This document shows, in pieces, positions 13,290 through 27,008 of a DNA stretch of 64,000 bases. Within the stretch, counting starts at the first letter, position 1. Each line of letters begins with the position of its first letter. A model generated the notes under the pieces. The model searched no databases. It had not been told where the DNA came from and was given only the letters and a program-made list of their open reading frames with translations. The stretch is from Alphaproteobacteria bacterium (GTDB lineage: Bacteria > Pseudomonadota > Alphaproteobacteria > Rickettsiales > UBA998): the NCBI GenBank assembly GCA_043765375.1, contig JAYUJH010000016.1, forward strand, positions 27,846-91,845, written 5' to 3'. The translations under genes were made by a program, and so were the position numbers.

Positions 13290-14467
13290 CCCTCTAAAAT
13301 CTCACCATAAATATCTAATGTTTTTTGCTGCATCGCTTGCAGCGAGAAATTATTTATCACATTAGTTTCTGCAAGGTAGCGCATCTCAGATTTGCGCTCA
13401 TCACTCATGCTCAACGCCTCATTAATTGCACTAGTAATCGCCGTAAAATCATCAGACGGAACAAGCCACCCTGTGCTGCCATGCAAAATTGTTTCACACG
13501 CACCGCCGTGATTAGTGGCGATAACCAACTTCGCCATCGCCCCCGCTTCCGCTGCAACTCGCCCGAAAGCCTCAGGTTTTTGCGACGGACAAAGCACCAA
13601 CTCACACAAAGCATAAGCCTCGGGCATGGCGTTGGTTGCTGGAACAAAACGCACATTTGCACCCAAATCAAGCTGCACTGTAAGCTGTTGTAATTCCTGA
13701 TAATATTTAGGGTGCTTATCCGCATCACCTGAGAAAATACAGAAAAAATCTCGGTGCGGCAAGGCATGGAGCGCACGCAAAACCATATCCTGCCCCTTCC
13801 AACGGGTGAACCTTGCGGGCATAAATAATATTGGTTTATCCACCTCAACCAGCTTCCATTCCTGCAATAACCGCCCGATATTCGCCTCCGCAATATTGGC
13901 TGGATTGAACTTATCTAAGTCAACCCCCCGATGGATAACTCGCACCACATTATCGCCAACATCGTAATTACGCCAAATATGTTCAGCGATAAAATTGGAT
14001 ACCGCAATCACTTTTTCACCCCTTGTCATTATGGCATTATATCGCTTGCGCAAATTGGCAAATGGTGGTTGCAAGCCATAAAGCCCATGAAATGTGGTCA
14101 CAAACTTAGTATTGGTGGCCTTGCAAGCAGCAAGCGCACTCCAAGCGGGCGCACGAGAGCGAGCATGAACGAGGCTGACTTTATGTTTGCGTATCAATTG
14201 TTGCAATGCAAAATTATTCTGCCAAATGCTCAGTGGATTTTTGGAATGAACGGGCAGTTGCACGTGAATTGCTCCCATTTTTTGCAACGCCTCCACCTGC
14301 CTGCCCCCGTTTGAAACCACAATCGCCGTTGCCCCCGCATTAATAATCGCCTGCGCAATATCAATCGTCCCCCGTTCCACCCCCCCCATATTTAAGGCAG
14401 GCAATATTTGCATAATGGTTTTACCATTTAGAGAAAAAGCTATGGTTCTGTTGGTGAGGTTATTCAT
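13286..14467 (-). CDS. Glycosyltransferase family 4 (GT-B fold)
   Basis: A GGVERG N-terminal motif is present. The C-terminal EAFGRVAAEAGAMAKLVIATNHGGACETI segment is the E-x7-E region typical of GT4/GT1. Confidence 0.8.
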   Translation of the reverse strand: MNNLTNRTIAFSLNGKTIMQILPALNMGGVERGTIDIAQAIINAGATAIVVSNGGRQVEALQKMGAIHVQLPVHSKNPLSIWQNNFALQQLIRKHKVSLVHARSRAPAWSALAACKATNTKFVTTFHGLYGLQPPFANLRKRYNAIMTRGEKVIAVSNFIAEHIWRNYDVGDNVVRVIHRGVDLDKFNPANIAEANIGRLLQEWKLVEVDKPILFMPARFTRWKGQDMVLRALHALPHRDFFCIFSGDADKHPKYYQELQQLTVQLDLGANVRFVPATNAMPEAYALCELVLCPSQKPEAFGRVAAEAGAMAKLVIATNHGGACETILHGSTGWLVPSDDFTAITSAINEALSMSDERKSEMRYLAETNVINNFSLQAMQQKTLDIYGEILEG

Positions 14468-15273
14468 GATCTGTATTGTGTAAAATCATCTGTGAGTGAG
14501 CTAAAATCAAACTCTGATTTAATTGAATTAATAGTTTTATCTATCCTTTGTTGAATTATCTGATAATAATCAGGATTGATTTCATATGCAATGTATCTTC
14601 TTCCATTTCTTATGCAAGACTCCACAGTTGTTCCAGAGCCAGCAAATGGGTCACAAACAACACCACCAACAGGGCAACTAGCTTTTATTATTCTATCAAT
14701 AATTTCAAGTGGCTTTTGTGTTGGGTGATTTTCACGCTGCGCATGTATCTTATGCAACCTAGAAACTGCCCATAAATCTTTAGGGTTATAACCAACTTCT
14801 AGCCATTTTTTCCCAACAAATATTGACCTGCTCCTAGCTTTTTTTGTTTCTTCATCGTATGCTATTCTGATTGCATCTAAATCAAAATAATAGTTTTTAT
14901 TTTTAACAAAAAATCCGATAGTATCATGCACAGAAGAGTATTTTCTAACGCTGCCTCCCATACTTGGGACTTTACGATCCCATATAATTTCATTAACCAT
15001 AATCATATGTTTTTTCAAAAATACAAATATTTCAGGGCTATATTTCCAAGTTGTAAAAATATATAAACTGCCAGTTTCTTTGAGTTTAGGTAAAATTAAT
15101 AACAACCATTTTTCTGTCCATTCCAAAAACTCCTTTTCTGGTTTTTTATCAGAATCATTACCATAATCTTTACCCAAACCATAAGGAGGATCAGCCACTA
15201 TTAAATCAAGCGAATTGTCTGGAAGTGCTGCTATTCCGTCTAAAGCATCTATATTTTCTAAAATATTCATCAT
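14464..15273 (-). CDS. Beta-class DNA methyltransferase (N6_N4_Mtase family; DPPY suggests N6-adenine)
   Basis: Motif IV IVADPPYG precedes motif I DPFAGSGTT, and HPTQKP is present. The gene is visibly more AT-rich than its flanks. Confidence 0.85.
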   Translation of the reverse strand: MMNILENIDALDGIAALPDNSLDLIVADPPYGLGKDYGNDSDKKPEKEFLEWTEKWLLLILPKLKETGSLYIFTTWKYSPEIFVFLKKHMIMVNEIIWDRKVPSMGGSVRKYSSVHDTIGFFVKNKNYYFDLDAIRIAYDEETKKARSRSIFVGKKWLEVGYNPKDLWAVSRLHKIHAQRENHPTQKPLEIIDRIIKASCPVGGVVCDPFAGSGTTVESCIRNGRRYIAYEINPDYYQIIQQRIDKTINSIKSEFDFSSLTDDFTQYRS

Positions 15274-15284
15274 ATTTCCTCTAA

Positions 15285-15887
15285 TCAGTTCAATATAATA
15301 CTTTTAGAATGTATTTTTAATAACCCTAAAAAATCCTCACGAGAGCGTAATACTTCTCTATGGTGATATTGTGATTGGATTTTATCGTTTCTAGGATTAA
15401 CATAAATTGGCAAAAATTGTGGACTAAAAACATGCACTGCTTCTTTATCAAAGTGAATAGTTGTATTTTCAAAAGAAAAACCAAAACAACAATATATTAG
15501 CCTATAATCATTGTTAGCCCTATATTGCATATAAAGTTTTTCAACGGCGGCAATATCATTTTTGTTAGCTTTTCCAGCAATGTTATGTATTTTAATATTA
15601 ACAAAATAACGTATATCGTCTTTATACAAAATGCAATCATGCAAACACGTATCAGACATTTCATTATCTACTTTGGTAAGACCAAGAACTTGTTTATGAT
15701 ATCTTGTTTGCTGCGTAATAACCTGCTCAACAATCCATGCAACAGAGCGTGTATGAGGCTTCAAACCATATGGCAATATTTCTGGATTGGTAATATCAAA
15801 AGAAGGAATAATTTTTAACACATTTAAGAATGTATTTTTGACAATTGCCATTTCTTGGTTAATTAGATTTATCTCATCATCAATCAT
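15285..15887 (-). CDS. Candidate type II restriction endonuclease partner of the methyltransferase
   Basis: It lies 11 nt upstream of the methyltransferase on the same strand and is equally AT-rich. A possible PD-(D/E)xK-like segment is DCILYKDDIRYFVNIK. I do not recognise a named enzyme family. Confidence 0.4.
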   Translation of the reverse strand: MIDDEINLINQEMAIVKNTFLNVLKIIPSFDITNPEILPYGLKPHTRSVAWIVEQVITQQTRYHKQVLGLTKVDNEMSDTCLHDCILYKDDIRYFVNIKIHNIAGKANKNDIAAVEKLYMQYRANNDYRLIYCCFGFSFENTTIHFDKEAVHVFSPQFLPIYVNPRNDKIQSQYHHREVLRSREDFLGLLKIHSKSIILN

Positions 15888-24031: not shown

Positions 24032-24940
24032 TTACCCACGCAAAAAATCCGCCATATCCTCCGCTAATTGCCGACCCATATGGCGCAATCCACTCAATTG
24101 ATGCGTTTGCAACCAACTCGCATCATGTGCTGCAATCATGCCCCGCAAGTTAATTATGCCCTTATCCAAAGTTGCATATGCGGCAATCGGAGTGCGACAA
24201 CTACCATCAAGCAAGCGCAACAAATGACGCTCCACCGAAACACATGAATGAGTTATATCGTGATTTATCTGCTCCAATAATTCAATCATCGCAAAATCTG
24301 TGCTGCGACATTGCATACCAATCGCCCCTTGCGACACGGCGGGCAATATTTCCGTAATCTCAATTGGGTGCGCATTAGGGTGAGTGATGCTCAACCTATC
24401 CAACCCCGCTTGCGCTAGCAATGTTGCATCAACTATACCCTCCTCCAGCTTGGCGAGGCGACGCTGCACATTGCCACGATAATTCACCACATTAATATCA
24501 GGGCGCAAATGCTTGACTTGCACTGCTCGGCGCAATGAAGACGTGCCAAGAATTGCGTTTTGAGGCAAAGTTGCAATGGTTGAGGCGTGAGGCGAAAGCA
24601 ATGTATCCCGCACATCATCGCGGGGCAGCATTGCGGGAATAATCAAGCCATCAGGCAGAATTGTTGCCACATCTTTCATGGAATGCACAGCAATATCAAT
24701 TGCACCACCAAGCAATGCTTGCTCAATTTCTTTGGTGAATAGCCCTTTATTGCCAATCTCGGAGAGGTTACCCAACAGATACGCATCGCCCGATGTTTGA
24801 AATGTTTTGATTATGATTTGTAAATGAGTGCTATGCGCAATTAATTCATCACGAACCATTTCCGCCTGACGCACTGCCAACGCACTAGAACGAGAACCGA
24901 TTATTATGTGGTGGTTTTCAAGCATCAGACAAATCTTCAA
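24032..24940 (-). CDS. hemC: Hydroxymethylbilane synthase (porphobilinogen deaminase)
   Basis: The motifs IIIGSRSSALAVRQAE, GDGLFTKEIE-like (NKGLFTKEIEQAL), HSMKD, GTSSLRR and GSCRTPIAA are present. The true start may be the internal Met at about 24925. Confidence 0.9.
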   Translation of the reverse strand: MKICLMLENHHIIIGSRSSALAVRQAEMVRDELIAHSTHLQIIIKTFQTSGDAYLLGNLSEIGNKGLFTKEIEQALLGGAIDIAVHSMKDVATILPDGLIIPAMLPRDDVRDTLLSPHASTIATLPQNAILGTSSLRRAVQVKHLRPDINVVNYRGNVQRRLAKLEEGIVDATLLAQAGLDRLSITHPNAHPIEITEILPAVSQGAIGMQCRSTDFAMIELLEQINHDITHSCVSVERHLLRLLDGSCRTPIAAYATLDKGIINLRGMIAAHDASWLQTHQLSGLRHMGRQLAEDMADFLRG

Positions 24941-25391
24941 ATCTCACTATTTTATTGTTATTTTTGCTATGCAATATTCCTAACTTATTTTTTTTAATTA
25001 TTTTGTTAGCTTGCGCATATCCAGCTTTTGGGTGTTTTGTGACAACAACTAAAACTCGTGTTTTATTATTATACTCAGTTTTATCTTTCAAATACTGATA
25101 AGTTGTTACAAGCTGATTTGCCGCCTTAACAAAATCAGTTCCTTTTAGCTCAATAATAATTTGCCCAACTCCAACTTTTTGCAATAAGTAGTCAGCCGAT
25201 TGTTGATTATTACCATATTTGTTTTTTATCACATAATTATCTATTCGTATTTTTTTATAATCACTTTCATCAGTATTACTAAAAGTAATTTTAGTGCTTT
25301 TGTTGTCTGTTACAACAATCAATGTATGATTTTTATTAGTATCTGGATTTTTGCAATAATCAACGTATTCATTTGGAAACTGGTAATTCAT
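24918..25391 (-). CDS. Small (157 aa) protein with a PD-(D/E)xK-type motif, partner of the upstream ATPase
   Basis: The segment D67-x13-E81-L-K83 (SADYLLQKVGVGQIIIELKG) has beta-hairpin-like spacing and is followed by a helix (FVKAANQLVTTYQYL). The gene is very AT-rich. It starts 5 nt after the ATPase stop, and its 3' end overlaps the annotated hemC start. Confidence 0.5.
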   Translation of the reverse strand: MNYQFPNEYVDYCKNPDTNKNHTLIVVTDNKSTKITFSNTDESDYKKIRIDNYVIKNKYGNNQQSADYLLQKVGVGQIIIELKGTDFVKAANQLVTTYQYLKDKTEYNNKTRVLVVVTKHPKAGYAQANKIIKKNKLGILHSKNNNKIVRFEDLSDA

Positions 25392-25396
25392 TAATG

Positions 25397-26644
25397 TTAC
25401 TCTAATTCTATTTCTGCAAGTTTTTGGATTTCTTCAATAATTATGTCTGATGCGCTATCCAAATATTCTTCCTCAATAATCCCATCACTATCAATTAAGT
25501 TATGGCTTTTGCCATCTTTCATTTCATAAACATTGATATTTTTGCGGGGCAACCAATATTCACGGGGGATTATTTTGGCAATTTTATCCAATTTTTCTGC
25601 ATCATCTTTGAATTGTTCAGAAAGTCTTCCTGCTTCAAGAAGTGAGTTTAATTGTGAGAGAATATAAGGGCTATGGGTGGTGATGAACGTATGTTGTATA
25701 TTTTTACTAATAGCAGTTTTTGAGCGCATTAGTTTAGTCACAGTTTCCTTATTTGATAATTCAACAATAAACTTAGCAATAATTCCTTGCGTTTCAGGAA
25801 ACAAATGTGCTTCTGGCTCTTCTATTACAACAAAATCATGTCTATAATTATATAAATAATCAAATGATGCAAGCAATGGATATAATTCCTTTTGTCCCGA
25901 CGAAGAATTAGTTAGAGAAACTTTACGCCCGTCATCACTAACGATGAAAATATTACGGTTATCTCTGACTATTTTTCCTTTCAAGGTATTATTTGCATCT
26001 TTTGTTATAAAGTAATCAAATTTTTCACCATTTATTTTTCGGATTTTTCCATCTGCTAACATCGCATAAAGACTCCCAAATTTATTGAGTATTACGTCTG
26101 GATTTTCTGACATCAATATATCAGCACTTTTAGAGCGATCTATAAAATAGCTTCTACCATCTGGAATGAATAGATTACGATATGGAATGTTTTGCCTTCT
26201 AAACAATCTACTTGCGCTCATTCTCAATCTAGAACTAATGATAAAATCATCTTCGTTAGATTTTTGCTTGTTAAATGCCTCATCAATTTTAGCATATAAT
26301 ACAATTAATTTATTAGACAGGGTAATTTGTAATTCTTTTTTTATCCCCAATATTTTTATAGAGTAACCATTAGTTTCAAACTTAATCTCAAATCTTTTAT
26401 CAGTAAAAGAATCTTTTTCAAACAAAATATAAAAATTATTCTTAATATACTGTTTTACTTGCTGAACAGAATTAACTTCATCGCTTTCAATTTCAATCTT
26501 TAGAAAACTTTCACTAAAAAAATAAATCAACTTACCCAACAAACTTTTCCCGCTGGAGTTAGCACCAATCAACACGGTCAAGTTGCTGATTTCCATATTA
26601 ATATTAGTTAAGCAACCGAAGTTTTTAACAATTATATGAGCCAT
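25397..26644 (-). CDS. Soluble ABC-type ATPase of the AAA_15/AAA_21 (OLD/AriA/PtuA-like) class
   Basis: It has Walker A GANSSGKS (K33), the signature-like motif SSGQKE, Walker B/D-loop FVVIEEPEAHLFP and the H-loop ITTHSPY. A long insert separates Walker A from the signature. There are no TM segments and no transporter partner. Confidence 0.8.
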   Translation of the reverse strand: MAHIIVKNFGCLTNINMEISNLTVLIGANSSGKSLLGKLIYFFSESFLKIEIESDEVNSVQQVKQYIKNNFYILFEKDSFTDKRFEIKFETNGYSIKILGIKKELQITLSNKLIVLYAKIDEAFNKQKSNEDDFIISSRLRMSASRLFRRQNIPYRNLFIPDGRSYFIDRSKSADILMSENPDVILNKFGSLYAMLADGKIRKINGEKFDYFITKDANNTLKGKIVRDNRNIFIVSDDGRKVSLTNSSSGQKELYPLLASFDYLYNYRHDFVVIEEPEAHLFPETQGIIAKFIVELSNKETVTKLMRSKTAISKNIQHTFITTHSPYILSQLNSLLEAGRLSEQFKDDAEKLDKIAKIIPREYWLPRKNINVYEMKDGKSHNLIDSDGIIEEEYLDSASDIIIEEIQKLAEIELE

Positions 26645-26678
26645 ATTTGCCTCTGCCTACCCACCAAAATGTAACTAA

Positions 26679-27008
26679 TTATTGTTTAACAGGTTTCGCT
26701 GGAGCTTTTTCTAGGGTTTTCGCTGGAGCTTTTAGTTTAGGCGTGGTTGGCTTCTTTATGCTTGCTCCACTAGTTTTTTTCATACCAATTCCGCTTGGTT
26801 TTGCTGCCCTGCCACCGCTTGTGATACATTCTTTGATGGAAGAATATGGCGTAAAGTTCTTGGTTCTACCATAGTGCATTGAGCCTTTTTCGTGACAAAT
26901 ACCCGTTGAGCTTTTCTTCACCGCTGGTTCTGCTGCATTTGCGCTAGTTGCCGTTATGGCGAAACAAAGCGTTAGTATGATAATTGTGTTTTTAATGGCT
27001 TTTGACAT
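26679..27008 (-). CDS. Small secreted protein with a Cys/His motif and a lysine/proline-rich tail
   Basis: It has a signal peptide (…ATSANA|AEP), the motif SSTGICHEKGSMHYGRTKNFTPYSSIKECITSGGR and then a KKPTTPKLKAPAKTLEKAPAKPVKQ tail. It starts 4 nt after the guaB stop. Confidence 0.55.
   Translation of the reverse strand: MSKAIKNTIIILTLCFAITATSANAAEPAVKKSSTGICHEKGSMHYGRTKNFTPYSSIKECITSGGRAAKPSGIGMKKTSGASIKKPTTPKLKAPAKTLEKAPAKPVKQ

Follow-up and report, generated by a model that had tools for sequence, protein, structure and literature searches.

A conserved gene pair for an ABC-type ATPase and a small PD-(D/E)xK-like protein, set between guaB and hemC, as a candidate defence module related to PDC-M29

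The window analysed here is a stretch of 64,000 nucleotides (nt) from an Alphaproteobacteria bacterium of the Rickettsiales (UBA998; GenBank assembly GCA_043765375.1, contig JAYUJH010000016.1, positions 27,846 to 91,845 of the forward strand). Between its guaB and hemC genes lies a cassette of two open reading frames (ORFs), gene A for an ATPase of the ATP-binding cassette (ABC) type of 415 amino acids (aa) and gene B for a protein of 157 aa. The two are a real, conserved two-gene module, near-obligate neighbours across many phyla. The cassette is best explained as an ATPase-nuclease module of the Septu/PARIS/HEC-02 design that acts in defence against phage or other mobile DNA, a reading to which a probability of roughly 0.6 is given. 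Judged by its sequence, it is a diverged, PDC-M29-like variant of a known ABC-ATPase/nuclease architecture and not something categorically new.

The linkage of the two genes carries much of the argument. When one genome per GTDB species was scanned with the ATPase as anchor, at least 520 relatives turned up among 185,579 representatives, a patchy distribution, and 80 loci were kept, in which homologues of the small protein were found by hidden Markov model search of six-frame ORFs. Such a homologue lies directly downstream of the ATPase gene and on the same strand in 78 of the 80 genome loci; this is 78 of the 79 evaluable ones, as the contig of one locus (L071) ends at the ATPase. The only true solo ATPase among these 79, which has no small-protein homologue downstream, is cyanobacterial (L080, 2569-3858). 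The kept loci come from Pseudomonadota, Bacteroidota, Cyanobacteriota, Acidobacteriota, Verrucomicrobiota, Chloroflexota, Planctomycetota, Armatimonadota, Spirochaetota, Ignavibacteriota, Cloacimonadota, and Hydrogenedentes, and in most of the loci other than the window (L001-L084) the two ORFs overlap or abut. All three metagenome loci also have the pair, with overlapping small ORFs of 145-154 aa that lack a Pfam match and are homologous to the 157-aa protein. Co-occurrence of the two families in unrelated genomes, on which a first-pass annotation of this DNA had staked its proposal of a defence module, is thus what the scan found. No third gene recurs beside the pair in the neighbourhoods surveyed.

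The pair is present, in addition, on about 49 viral or prophage contigs of IMG/VR. More distant AAA_15 ATPases recovered in the same scan (E value about 1e-23) are without the partner and provide an internal negative control. A divergent sub-family recurs in human-gut samples, on about 30 contigs that are predicted to be viral and are nearly identical (L106-L138, IMG/VR, 3300029xxx and 3300045988); its ATPase and small protein match the family profiles at E values of about 1e-53 and about 1e-24, respectively; this suggests that the sub-family is carried by a common gut phage or prophage. In the INPHARED phage collection only two unverified gut fragments were matched, one of which carries the pair.

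By sequence and by structural model, gene A encodes a soluble head of the ABC/SMC type that belongs with the OLD/PtuA/AriA/Rad50-like proteins. Its product matches Pfam AAA_15 (1.8e-22, 80.9 bits against a cutoff of 32.1) and AAA_21 (1.2e-18, 68.7 bits against a cutoff of 27), in agreement with the first-pass description of an AAA_15/21-type ATPase without a transporter partner. The Walker A, signature, Walker B/D-loop, and H-loop motifs that had been read there were all recovered on re-translation from their coordinates, in canonical order, and all catalytic residues are present in 23 of the 23 family ATPases aligned. Within this alignment the invariant positions are G27, G32, K33, and S34 of Walker A; S248, S249, G250, and E253 of the signature; E275, E276, P277, E278, and A279 of Walker B, where E275/E276 are the catalytic acidic residues; and T322 to Y327 of the H-loop. 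A further family-conserved motif, FIPDGRS, has P161 and R164 invariant in the same 23 sequences and may be the equivalent of a Q-loop, since it stands where a Q-loop is expected. The distance from Walker A to the signature, estimated earlier as about 200 aa, was measured as 213 aa (an insert of about 210 aa).

The AlphaFold2 model of the ATPase (predicted score in the local distance difference test [pLDDT] 84.6, predicted template modelling score [pTM] 0.87) has a short helical insert at about residues 111-150, the place where Rad50 and SMC proteins have a long coiled coil, and the protein ends in a family-specific C-terminal domain of about 90 aa (about residues 326-415). Compared with the PDB by Foldseek, the model has 191 matches at E <= 1e-3, the 50 best of which are heads of OLD, Rad50, PtuA, GajA, SMC, and AriA proteins; at the top stand retron-Eco8 OLD, Rad50, PtuA (template modelling [TM] scores 0.46/0.51), GajA, SMC, and AriA, with E values of 1e-9 to 1e-7. 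The AriA/PtuA/OLD-like fold that had been anticipated is therefore what the model resembles. A profile search against PDB sequences gives the same kind of relatives, namely OLD (6p74, 8.7e-15), PtuA from Septu and retrons (1e-12 to 3e-10), and GajA (about 2e-4). Homologues of the ATPase are numerous, with 2585 scored, and are about 30% identical over their full length.

Gene B is predicted, from a conserved motif and a model topology that support it well, to encode a minimal PD-(D/E)xK enzyme, a prediction that comes with no significant fold match. A word-indexed search with the 157-aa protein recovered only the protein itself. Homologues were collected by exhaustive HMMER search at E <= 1e-3, which yielded 77 representative clusters; nearly all members are about 130-175 aa long, together with a few short fragments, and three long matches (P0132, P0148, P0190) were discarded as spurious because they are repeat proteins. 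In an alignment of 74 homologues the putative catalytic hairpin, D67-x13-E81-L-K83, is nearly invariant, with D67 and E81 each found in 74 of 74 sequences, K83 in 73, G84 in 72, and L82 in 69. Such invariance indicates that the motif, which the first-pass annotation had picked out in a single sequence and which was confirmed by re-translation, is more than chance. Upstream of the hairpin, the conserved D51 is a candidate third metal ligand, and downstream of it Q93 occupies a position that we take to be comparable to that of the Q in the QxxxY motif of RecB/Cas4-type nucleases. Among the other conserved positions are N39 (72/74) and P121 (71/74) and, often, C13 and C53.

The AlphaFold2 model of the small protein (pLDDT 79.3, pTM 0.78) consists of a beta-rich N-terminal extension and a core of strand 68-72, strand 76-82, helix 87-102, strand 111-117, and helix 125-134. 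D67 stands directly before the first of these strands, E81 lies inside the adjacent one, and K83 follows just after it, so that in the model the three residues have the canonical PD-(D/E)xK arrangement, in which (D/E)xK comes 10-30 residues after a conserved acidic residue and the two are placed on neighbouring beta strands. The best PDB profile match, to the Cas4 protein SSO0001 (4ic1, E 0.035), is aligned over raD...vELKG and puts the motif residues of the small protein on Cas4 motifs II and III. The 157-aa protein itself has no Pfam, NCBIfam, or PHROG assignment; the matches obtained there, to PUB, PEX11, XepA, and others, were dismissed as noise. Family members give 22 weak Pfam matches to six families, the best at 5e-4 and none above the gathering score: NucS_C (7), HSDR_N (6), HSDR_N_2 (4), PDDEXK_9 (2), DUF2726 (2), and PDDEXK_3 (1), all of which we take to be PD-(D/E)xK-clan families. 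Weak Foldseek matches point to the same superfamily, in the PDB to XPF, Mus81, FANCM, EcoO109I, PspGI, FokI, Nt.BspD6I, and Cap4, and in BFVD to MmcB-like, Mrr, VRR-NUC, ERCC4, RecU, and DUF2726 proteins. Of the earlier description of the protein as PD-(D/E)xK nuclease-like, the part that concerns motif and topology has held up, whereas the fold matches are weak throughout.

Both genes match PDC-M29, a candidate system of the PADLOC library, and so the earlier statement that the effector cannot be assigned to any named system needs correction. The PDC set comprises 145 candidate systems recognised through "guilt-by-embedding", from genes that lie inside BREX, DISARM, or type I restriction-modification (RM) loci, and these systems are reported to co-localise with other defence systems less than do those found by enrichment (Payne et al., bioRxiv 10.1101/2024.01.29.577857). 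No paper that mentions PDC-M29 was found in the literature. The likeness begins with the two-gene layout, the A and B models of PDC-M29 having 410 and 164 positions and the proteins here 415 and 157 aa. The ATPase matches PDC-M29A at 4.9e-23, over the C-terminal domain (residues 266-413 against model positions 269-407 of 410), which is no better than its match to a generic AAA_15-like "AriA" model (3.6e-25); the only PADLOC match of the small protein is to PDC-M29B (1.6e-4). Across the family, PDC-M29A is matched by 23 of 23 ATPases (best 2e-31), and the two PDC-M29B models are matched by 38 and by 6 of the 74 small proteins (best 1.1e-12). These modest scores argue for a diverged sister branch and not a clean member, and under PADLOC's own thresholds the cassette might or might not be called as PDC-M29. 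The first-pass annotation had held that a clean match of both genes to a named system would remove the novelty; both genes do match one, but modestly and not cleanly.

Novelty is limited from another side by HEC-02, in which an ABC ATPase and a NERD-type PD-(D/E)xK protein protect against phage and both genes are required (bioRxiv 10.1101/2024.01.29.577857). Like the cassette, HEC-02 pairs an ABC ATPase with a separate protein of the PD-(D/E)xK superfamily in two genes, and an ATPase with a PD-(D/E)xK effector, which had been put forward as a new variant, is a combination that this validated system already has. Membership in HEC-02 was nevertheless rejected. HEC-02A matches the ATPase only at 6.7e-11 and only partially, in the N- and C-terminal core; matches to HEC-02B are nearly absent, its two models each finding one of the 74 small proteins at E values of about 0.008-0.009; and the effector here is smaller (about 150 aa) and not of the NERD type.

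Septu resembles the cassette in its operon order, ATPase first and small nuclease second, and in its ATPase, since PtuA is among the best matches of gene A (Foldseek 8eea/8sux, TM 0.44-0.51). It differs in that PtuB is an HNH protein and the effector here is PD-(D/E)xK-like, and in that PtuA has about 465-550 aa and the ATPase here 415. Septu was rejected on both genes: with the NCBIfam PtuA model NF041760, whose cutoff is 500 bits, the ATPase reaches 15.4 bits, and searches of Pfam, PADLOC, and NCBIfam gave no HNH match for the small protein. (PtuAB also occurs in association with retrons.) PARIS combines the ABC ATPase AriA with AriB, a DUF4435/Toprim nuclease (Nature 2024, PMC11464382). It shares with the cassette an AAA_15/AAA_21 ATPase and a separately encoded nuclease, and AriA structures (8ux9, 8v45, 8v46) are among the fold matches of the ATPase at E values of about 1e-7. 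The AriA models of PADLOC, with 373 and 304 positions, resemble the generic Pfam profiles AAA_15 (374) and AAA_21 (304). The effector of PARIS is a Toprim protein and that of the cassette a PD-(D/E)xK protein, and PARIS was rejected because the 157-aa protein has no Toprim or DUF4435 match and there is neither an AriB-like gene nor a conserved third gene. OLD and GajA supply the best PDB sequence match (OLD nuclease 6p74) and the top Foldseek match (retron-Eco8 OLD), but in these proteins a Toprim nuclease is fused to the ATPase, whereas the nuclease here is separate and of another fold; Gabija differs further in its Toprim domain and its GajB helicase, neither of which has a counterpart in the cassette. 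Menshen was likewise rejected, as it is built from three genes, with ParB-DUF262 as its sensor and PIN/BECR proteins as effectors.

The setting of the cassette is best read by comparison with its closest relative for both proteins, a locus on a 1.9-Mb contig (L087, 8839-10453, JGI 3300044940). Its small protein is nearest by a wide margin (6.4e-28 against 3.6e-11 for the next match), and its gene order, guaB-ATPase-small gene-hemC with overlapping gene ends, is that of the window, which argues that the insertion is old and shared. GuaB and HemC of the two genomes are 85% and 68% identical, and the ATPase and the small protein only 47% and 49%; on these identities the cassette is evolving much faster than the genes that flank it. 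Its base composition is different as well. The fraction of guanine plus cytosine (GC) is 0.304 in the ATPase gene and 0.278 in the small gene, against 0.476 in guaB and 0.470 in hemC, as the first-pass annotation had estimated by hand, and lies 2.5 to 3.1 standard deviations below the mean of the long ORFs of the window (0.410, standard deviation 0.042, n = 59). The relative shows the same, with 0.31 and 0.26 in the cassette genes and 0.48 and 0.46 in the flanks. Selection, silencing, and repeated replacement are the possibilities for how a low GC content has been kept despite long residence.

The cassette had been described earlier as inserted into a housekeeping gene string. It does lie inside the guaB-hemC string, but the shared synteny shows that it is not a recent arrival, and no tRNA gene, integrase, flanking direct repeat, or Rfam element marks its insertion; neither a tRNA gene nor, at the gathering threshold, a Rfam family occurs anywhere in the window. 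None of 80 other, more distant hemC loci from a hemC-anchored metagenome scan (HemC 46-55% identical) has the cassette; only such distant HemC relatives were recovered, and no "empty site" from a close relative is among them. Its low GC content, its 47% and 49% identity to the nearest relative, and the patchy distribution of the family together argue for an accessory, fast-evolving module; to these signs can be added that a gene for a type II DNA methyltransferase is part of the sole other gene pair of the window that is comparably AT-rich.

Elsewhere the pair was followed through 280 proteins encoded within four genes of it at 34-36 loci. Within two genes, 144 proteins from 36 loci gave single matches to a type III restriction endonuclease, a DRT reverse transcriptase, MzaA, SoFic, ThsB, a type II methyltransferase, and DolB; three to four genes away (136 proteins, 34 loci) there are one type III RM match, DitA, HEC-05, and a few mad-like ATPases. 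Location in defence islands, which the first-pass annotation had thought worth checking, is not the rule, for the neighbours are mostly housekeeping genes and the defence matches are scattered among them. In 5 of the 36 loci SRP54/ffh lies directly beside the pair, which is probably lineage synteny. One homologous pair (L001, 990-3360 and 106-982) sits on a small integrative element, beside a tyrosine integrase, a DUF4224 protein, a Rep_trans replication protein, and a BrnT/BrnA toxin-antitoxin system.

Within the window the cassette belongs to a co-directional string of guaB, a 109-aa ORF, the ATPase gene, the small gene, and hemC, with successive gaps of 4, 34, 5, and -8 nt (Table 1). The two ORFs with their 5-nt gap, and the overlap of the end of the cassette with the start of hemC, agree with what had been reported earlier. 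The short spacing suggests translational coupling of the pair. For hemC, the ATG at 24925 is also the start in a public gene call; an upstream TTG (24940) as alternative start would lengthen the overlap with the small gene to 23 nt, and the syntenic relative has an analogous overlap of 4 nt. For the ATPase, the 415-aa version is favoured over the 399-aa version of one public gene call because its first 16 residues, including the invariant F9, align with the family consensus. From 28503 to 24918 the minus strand shows no terminator-like site. A single weak promoter-like site (26659 to 26631, 10/12 matches) was seen, and promoter-like sites in the cassette region are in total no more numerous than in shuffled sequence. 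Since no terminator separates guaB and the 109-aa ORF from the cassette, it is probably co-transcribed with guaB and hemC.

Table 1. Positions in the window of the cassette genes, their junctions, and the motifs of their products
Feature	Positions	Strand	Basis or remark
Gene A, ATPase ORF, 415 aa	25397..26644	(-)	ORF list
Gene B, small ORF, 157 aa	24918..25391	(-)	ORF list
Spacer of 5 nt from ATPase stop to small-gene start (TAAcattaATG)	25392..25396	(-)	
Overlap of 8 nt between small-gene end and hemC start codon, ATGCTTGA	24918..24925	(-)	Sequence and re-translation
Spacer of 34 nt upstream of the ATPase gene, with GGCAGAGG, resembling a ribosome-binding site	26645..26678	(-)	Sequence
Walker A / P-loop GANSSGKS, residues 27-34, catalytic K33	26543..26566	(-)	Re-translated
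FIPDGRS motif, residues 159-165 (consensus FIPAGRSFFT)	26150..26170	(-)	Family-conserved
ABC signature SSGQKE, residues 248-253 (family consensus LSSGQQE)	25886..25903	(-)	Re-translated
Walker B and D-loop FVVIEEPEAHLFP, residues 271-283	25796..25834	(-)	Re-translated
H-loop ITTHSPY, residues 321-327, H324	25664..25684	(-)	Re-translated
Putative catalytic hairpin D67-x13-E81-L-K83, DYLLQKVGVGQIIIELK	25143..25193	(-)	Re-translated
D51, conserved upstream acidic residue	25239..25241	(-)	73/74 sequences
Q93, in the helix after the ExK strand	25113..25115	(-)	73/74 sequences; helix 87-102 of the model

The 109-aa ORF between guaB and the ATPase gene (26679..27008, minus strand) had escaped mention in the first-pass annotation. 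Its product has a signal-peptide-like N-terminus, a Cys-containing motif, GICHEKGSMHYGRTKNFTPYSSIKECITSGGR, that matches the C-terminus of phrog_37565 at 2.1e-15, and a Lys/Pro/Ala-rich tail, in which an exact tandem duplication of 16 nt is found (26694-26709 and 26718-26733). As the syntenic relative lacks this ORF, it stands outside the conserved module. The other AT-rich gene pair of the window lies at 14464-15887 on the minus strand. Its 269-aa protein (14464..15273, GC 0.325) is identified as a DNA methyltransferase of type II by its match to PADLOC MTase_II (4.1e-132) and, in a public gene call, to Pfam N6_N4_Mtase, which makes the pair a probable RM cassette; the adjoining 200-aa protein (15285..15887, GC 0.297) has no match of any kind and is probably the cognate restriction enzyme. 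No other long ORFs of the window have a GC content as low as these two genes and the two of the cassette.

That the pair acts in defence is inferred on two main grounds. Both genes match PDC-M29, and the PDC models were built from clusters whose seed genes lie within BREX, DISARM, or type I RM loci; and HEC-02 shows that a pair of an ABC ATPase and a PD-(D/E)xK protein can defend. Several observations pull the other way and lower the probability of a defence role. The scores of the family against the 410-position PDC-M29A model are far below what true members of such a model would be expected to reach, and at least one other multi-gene PDC candidate was inactive when assayed (PMC12409345). Defence-model matches account for about 15-25 of the 280 neighbours, a raw count, and the commonest neighbours are genes for SRP54, Hsp70, and malate synthase. 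No copy of the pair was found on the plasmids of PLSDB, and its presence at the same guaB-hemC position in two diverged genomes would also fit a cellular function. The nuclease-fold assignment of the small protein rests on weak matches, with nothing at E <= 1e-3 in Foldseek and TM-scores of 0.3-0.43, and complex formation, trigger, and substrate are all inferred.

How such a module could work can be proposed by analogy with PARIS (PMC11464382), Septu, and HEC-02, of which PARIS supplies the idea of an ATPase scaffold that holds a nuclease until it is triggered. The ATPase would oligomerise through nucleotide-dependent engagement of its heads, like other ABC ATPases, and the oligomer would bind the small nuclease and hold it inactive; the tight translational coupling fits an ATPase-nuclease complex of fixed stoichiometry, and docking or substrate recognition may be the task of the small protein's beta-rich N-terminal part, in which N39 and D51, and often C13 and C53, are conserved. 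A cue from an invader, such as a protein of the phage, or ends or structures of foreign DNA, would then alter the nucleotide state of the ATPase and so release or activate the PD-(D/E)xK subunit, which would cut nucleic acid, most likely DNA and possibly tRNA or another RNA. Cleavage might stop the invader directly or by abortion of the infected cell. In the lineage of the window the module was inserted long ago into the guaB-hemC string, where it is probably co-transcribed. A bolder form of the defence reading, in which the pair belongs to a distinct family of two-protein immune complexes (an ABC ATPase with a PD-(D/E)xK protein of about 150 aa) whose trigger and target are unlike those of Septu, PARIS, and HEC-02, and which has become fixed for the long term in the guaB-hemC string with its translation coupled to that of hemC, is a tentative one and somewhat doubtful.

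Other explanations are unlikely to a greater degree. The pair might be a selfish cassette that works by addiction or stabilisation, much like a toxin-antitoxin system, in which a nuclease toxin is restrained by the ATPase and there is no dedicated anti-phage role; it would persist because its loss is harmful, here also through coupling to hemC expression. The tight coupling of two genes with the smaller nuclease gene downstream, the scattered solo insertions among housekeeping genes, and the homologue beside BrnT/BrnA, an integrase, and a Rep gene are all compatible with this, and the 8-nt overlap with the essential hemC, together with the lack of a terminator, would make a clean deletion costly. 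However, the known ABC-ATPase/nuclease pairs of like design (Septu, PARIS, HEC-02) act in defence, nothing in the cassette resembles a labile antitoxin, and plasmids, on which addiction modules are common, yielded none in PLSDB. Such a role is unlikely, and it is hard to separate from the defence reading because addiction and abortive-infection defence are not mutually exclusive.

Quite unlikely is a function in the maintenance or repair of cellular DNA, with a miniature Rad50/SbcC-like ATPase and a structure-specific nuclease of the Hjc, NucS, or XPF type acting together on aberrant DNA. The model of the ATPase fits Rad50/SMC heads about as well as it fits defence ATPases, and the weak matches of the small protein include the structure-specific nucleases NucS_C, XPF, Mus81, FANCM, and RecU. 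The mostly housekeeping neighbourhoods, the guaB-hemC synteny kept in two diverged genomes (one of them on a 1.9-Mb contig), and the absence from PLSDB plasmids would suit such a function. But a distribution of at least 520 among 185,579 species is very patchy for it, the 80 other hemC loci are without the cassette, and the cassette is AT-rich and diverges much faster than its flanks. Moreover, the pair is found on viral and prophage contigs and beside an integrase and a Rep gene, it is related in sequence to PDC-M29, a defence candidate of PADLOC, and it has neither a long coiled coil nor an Mre11-like partner. It is very unlikely, finally, that the small protein is an adaptor, a sensor, or a DNA-binding subunit in which D...ExK is structural or serves binding, the output being, for example, ATP depletion or DNA clamping: this copy does fall below every Pfam family threshold and its Foldseek matches are poor, and inactive restriction-endonuclease-fold sensors exist in ATPase-containing defence systems, such as the N-terminal domains of Menshen NsnA, but those domains lack the PD-(D/E)xK motif (PMC12065111), whereas here D67, E81, and K83 are kept across phyla in 73-74 of 74 sequences and fall on Cas4 motifs II and III in the Cas4 alignment, and no other candidate effector gene is conserved beside the pair.

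If the pair is active as an ATPase-controlled nuclease, it would add one more type of effector, a very small PD-(D/E)xK protein, to those governed by ABC ATPases in Septu, PARIS, Gabija/OLD, and HEC-02, and at 415 and 157 aa it is compact enough to lend itself to structural and mechanistic studies of nuclease gating by ABC ATPases. Because the family is widespread and yet mostly stands alone among housekeeping genes, it is an example of the candidates that screens for island enrichment miss. The most unusual aspect of the cassette is its long residence in the guaB-hemC string, in which it is still AT-rich and fast-evolving, and this synteny leads one to ask how modules of foreign origin come to be fixed within essential operons. 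Should the distinct-family reading be true, the cassette would be a module for defence or addiction that is bound to housekeeping genes in its expression and its retention.

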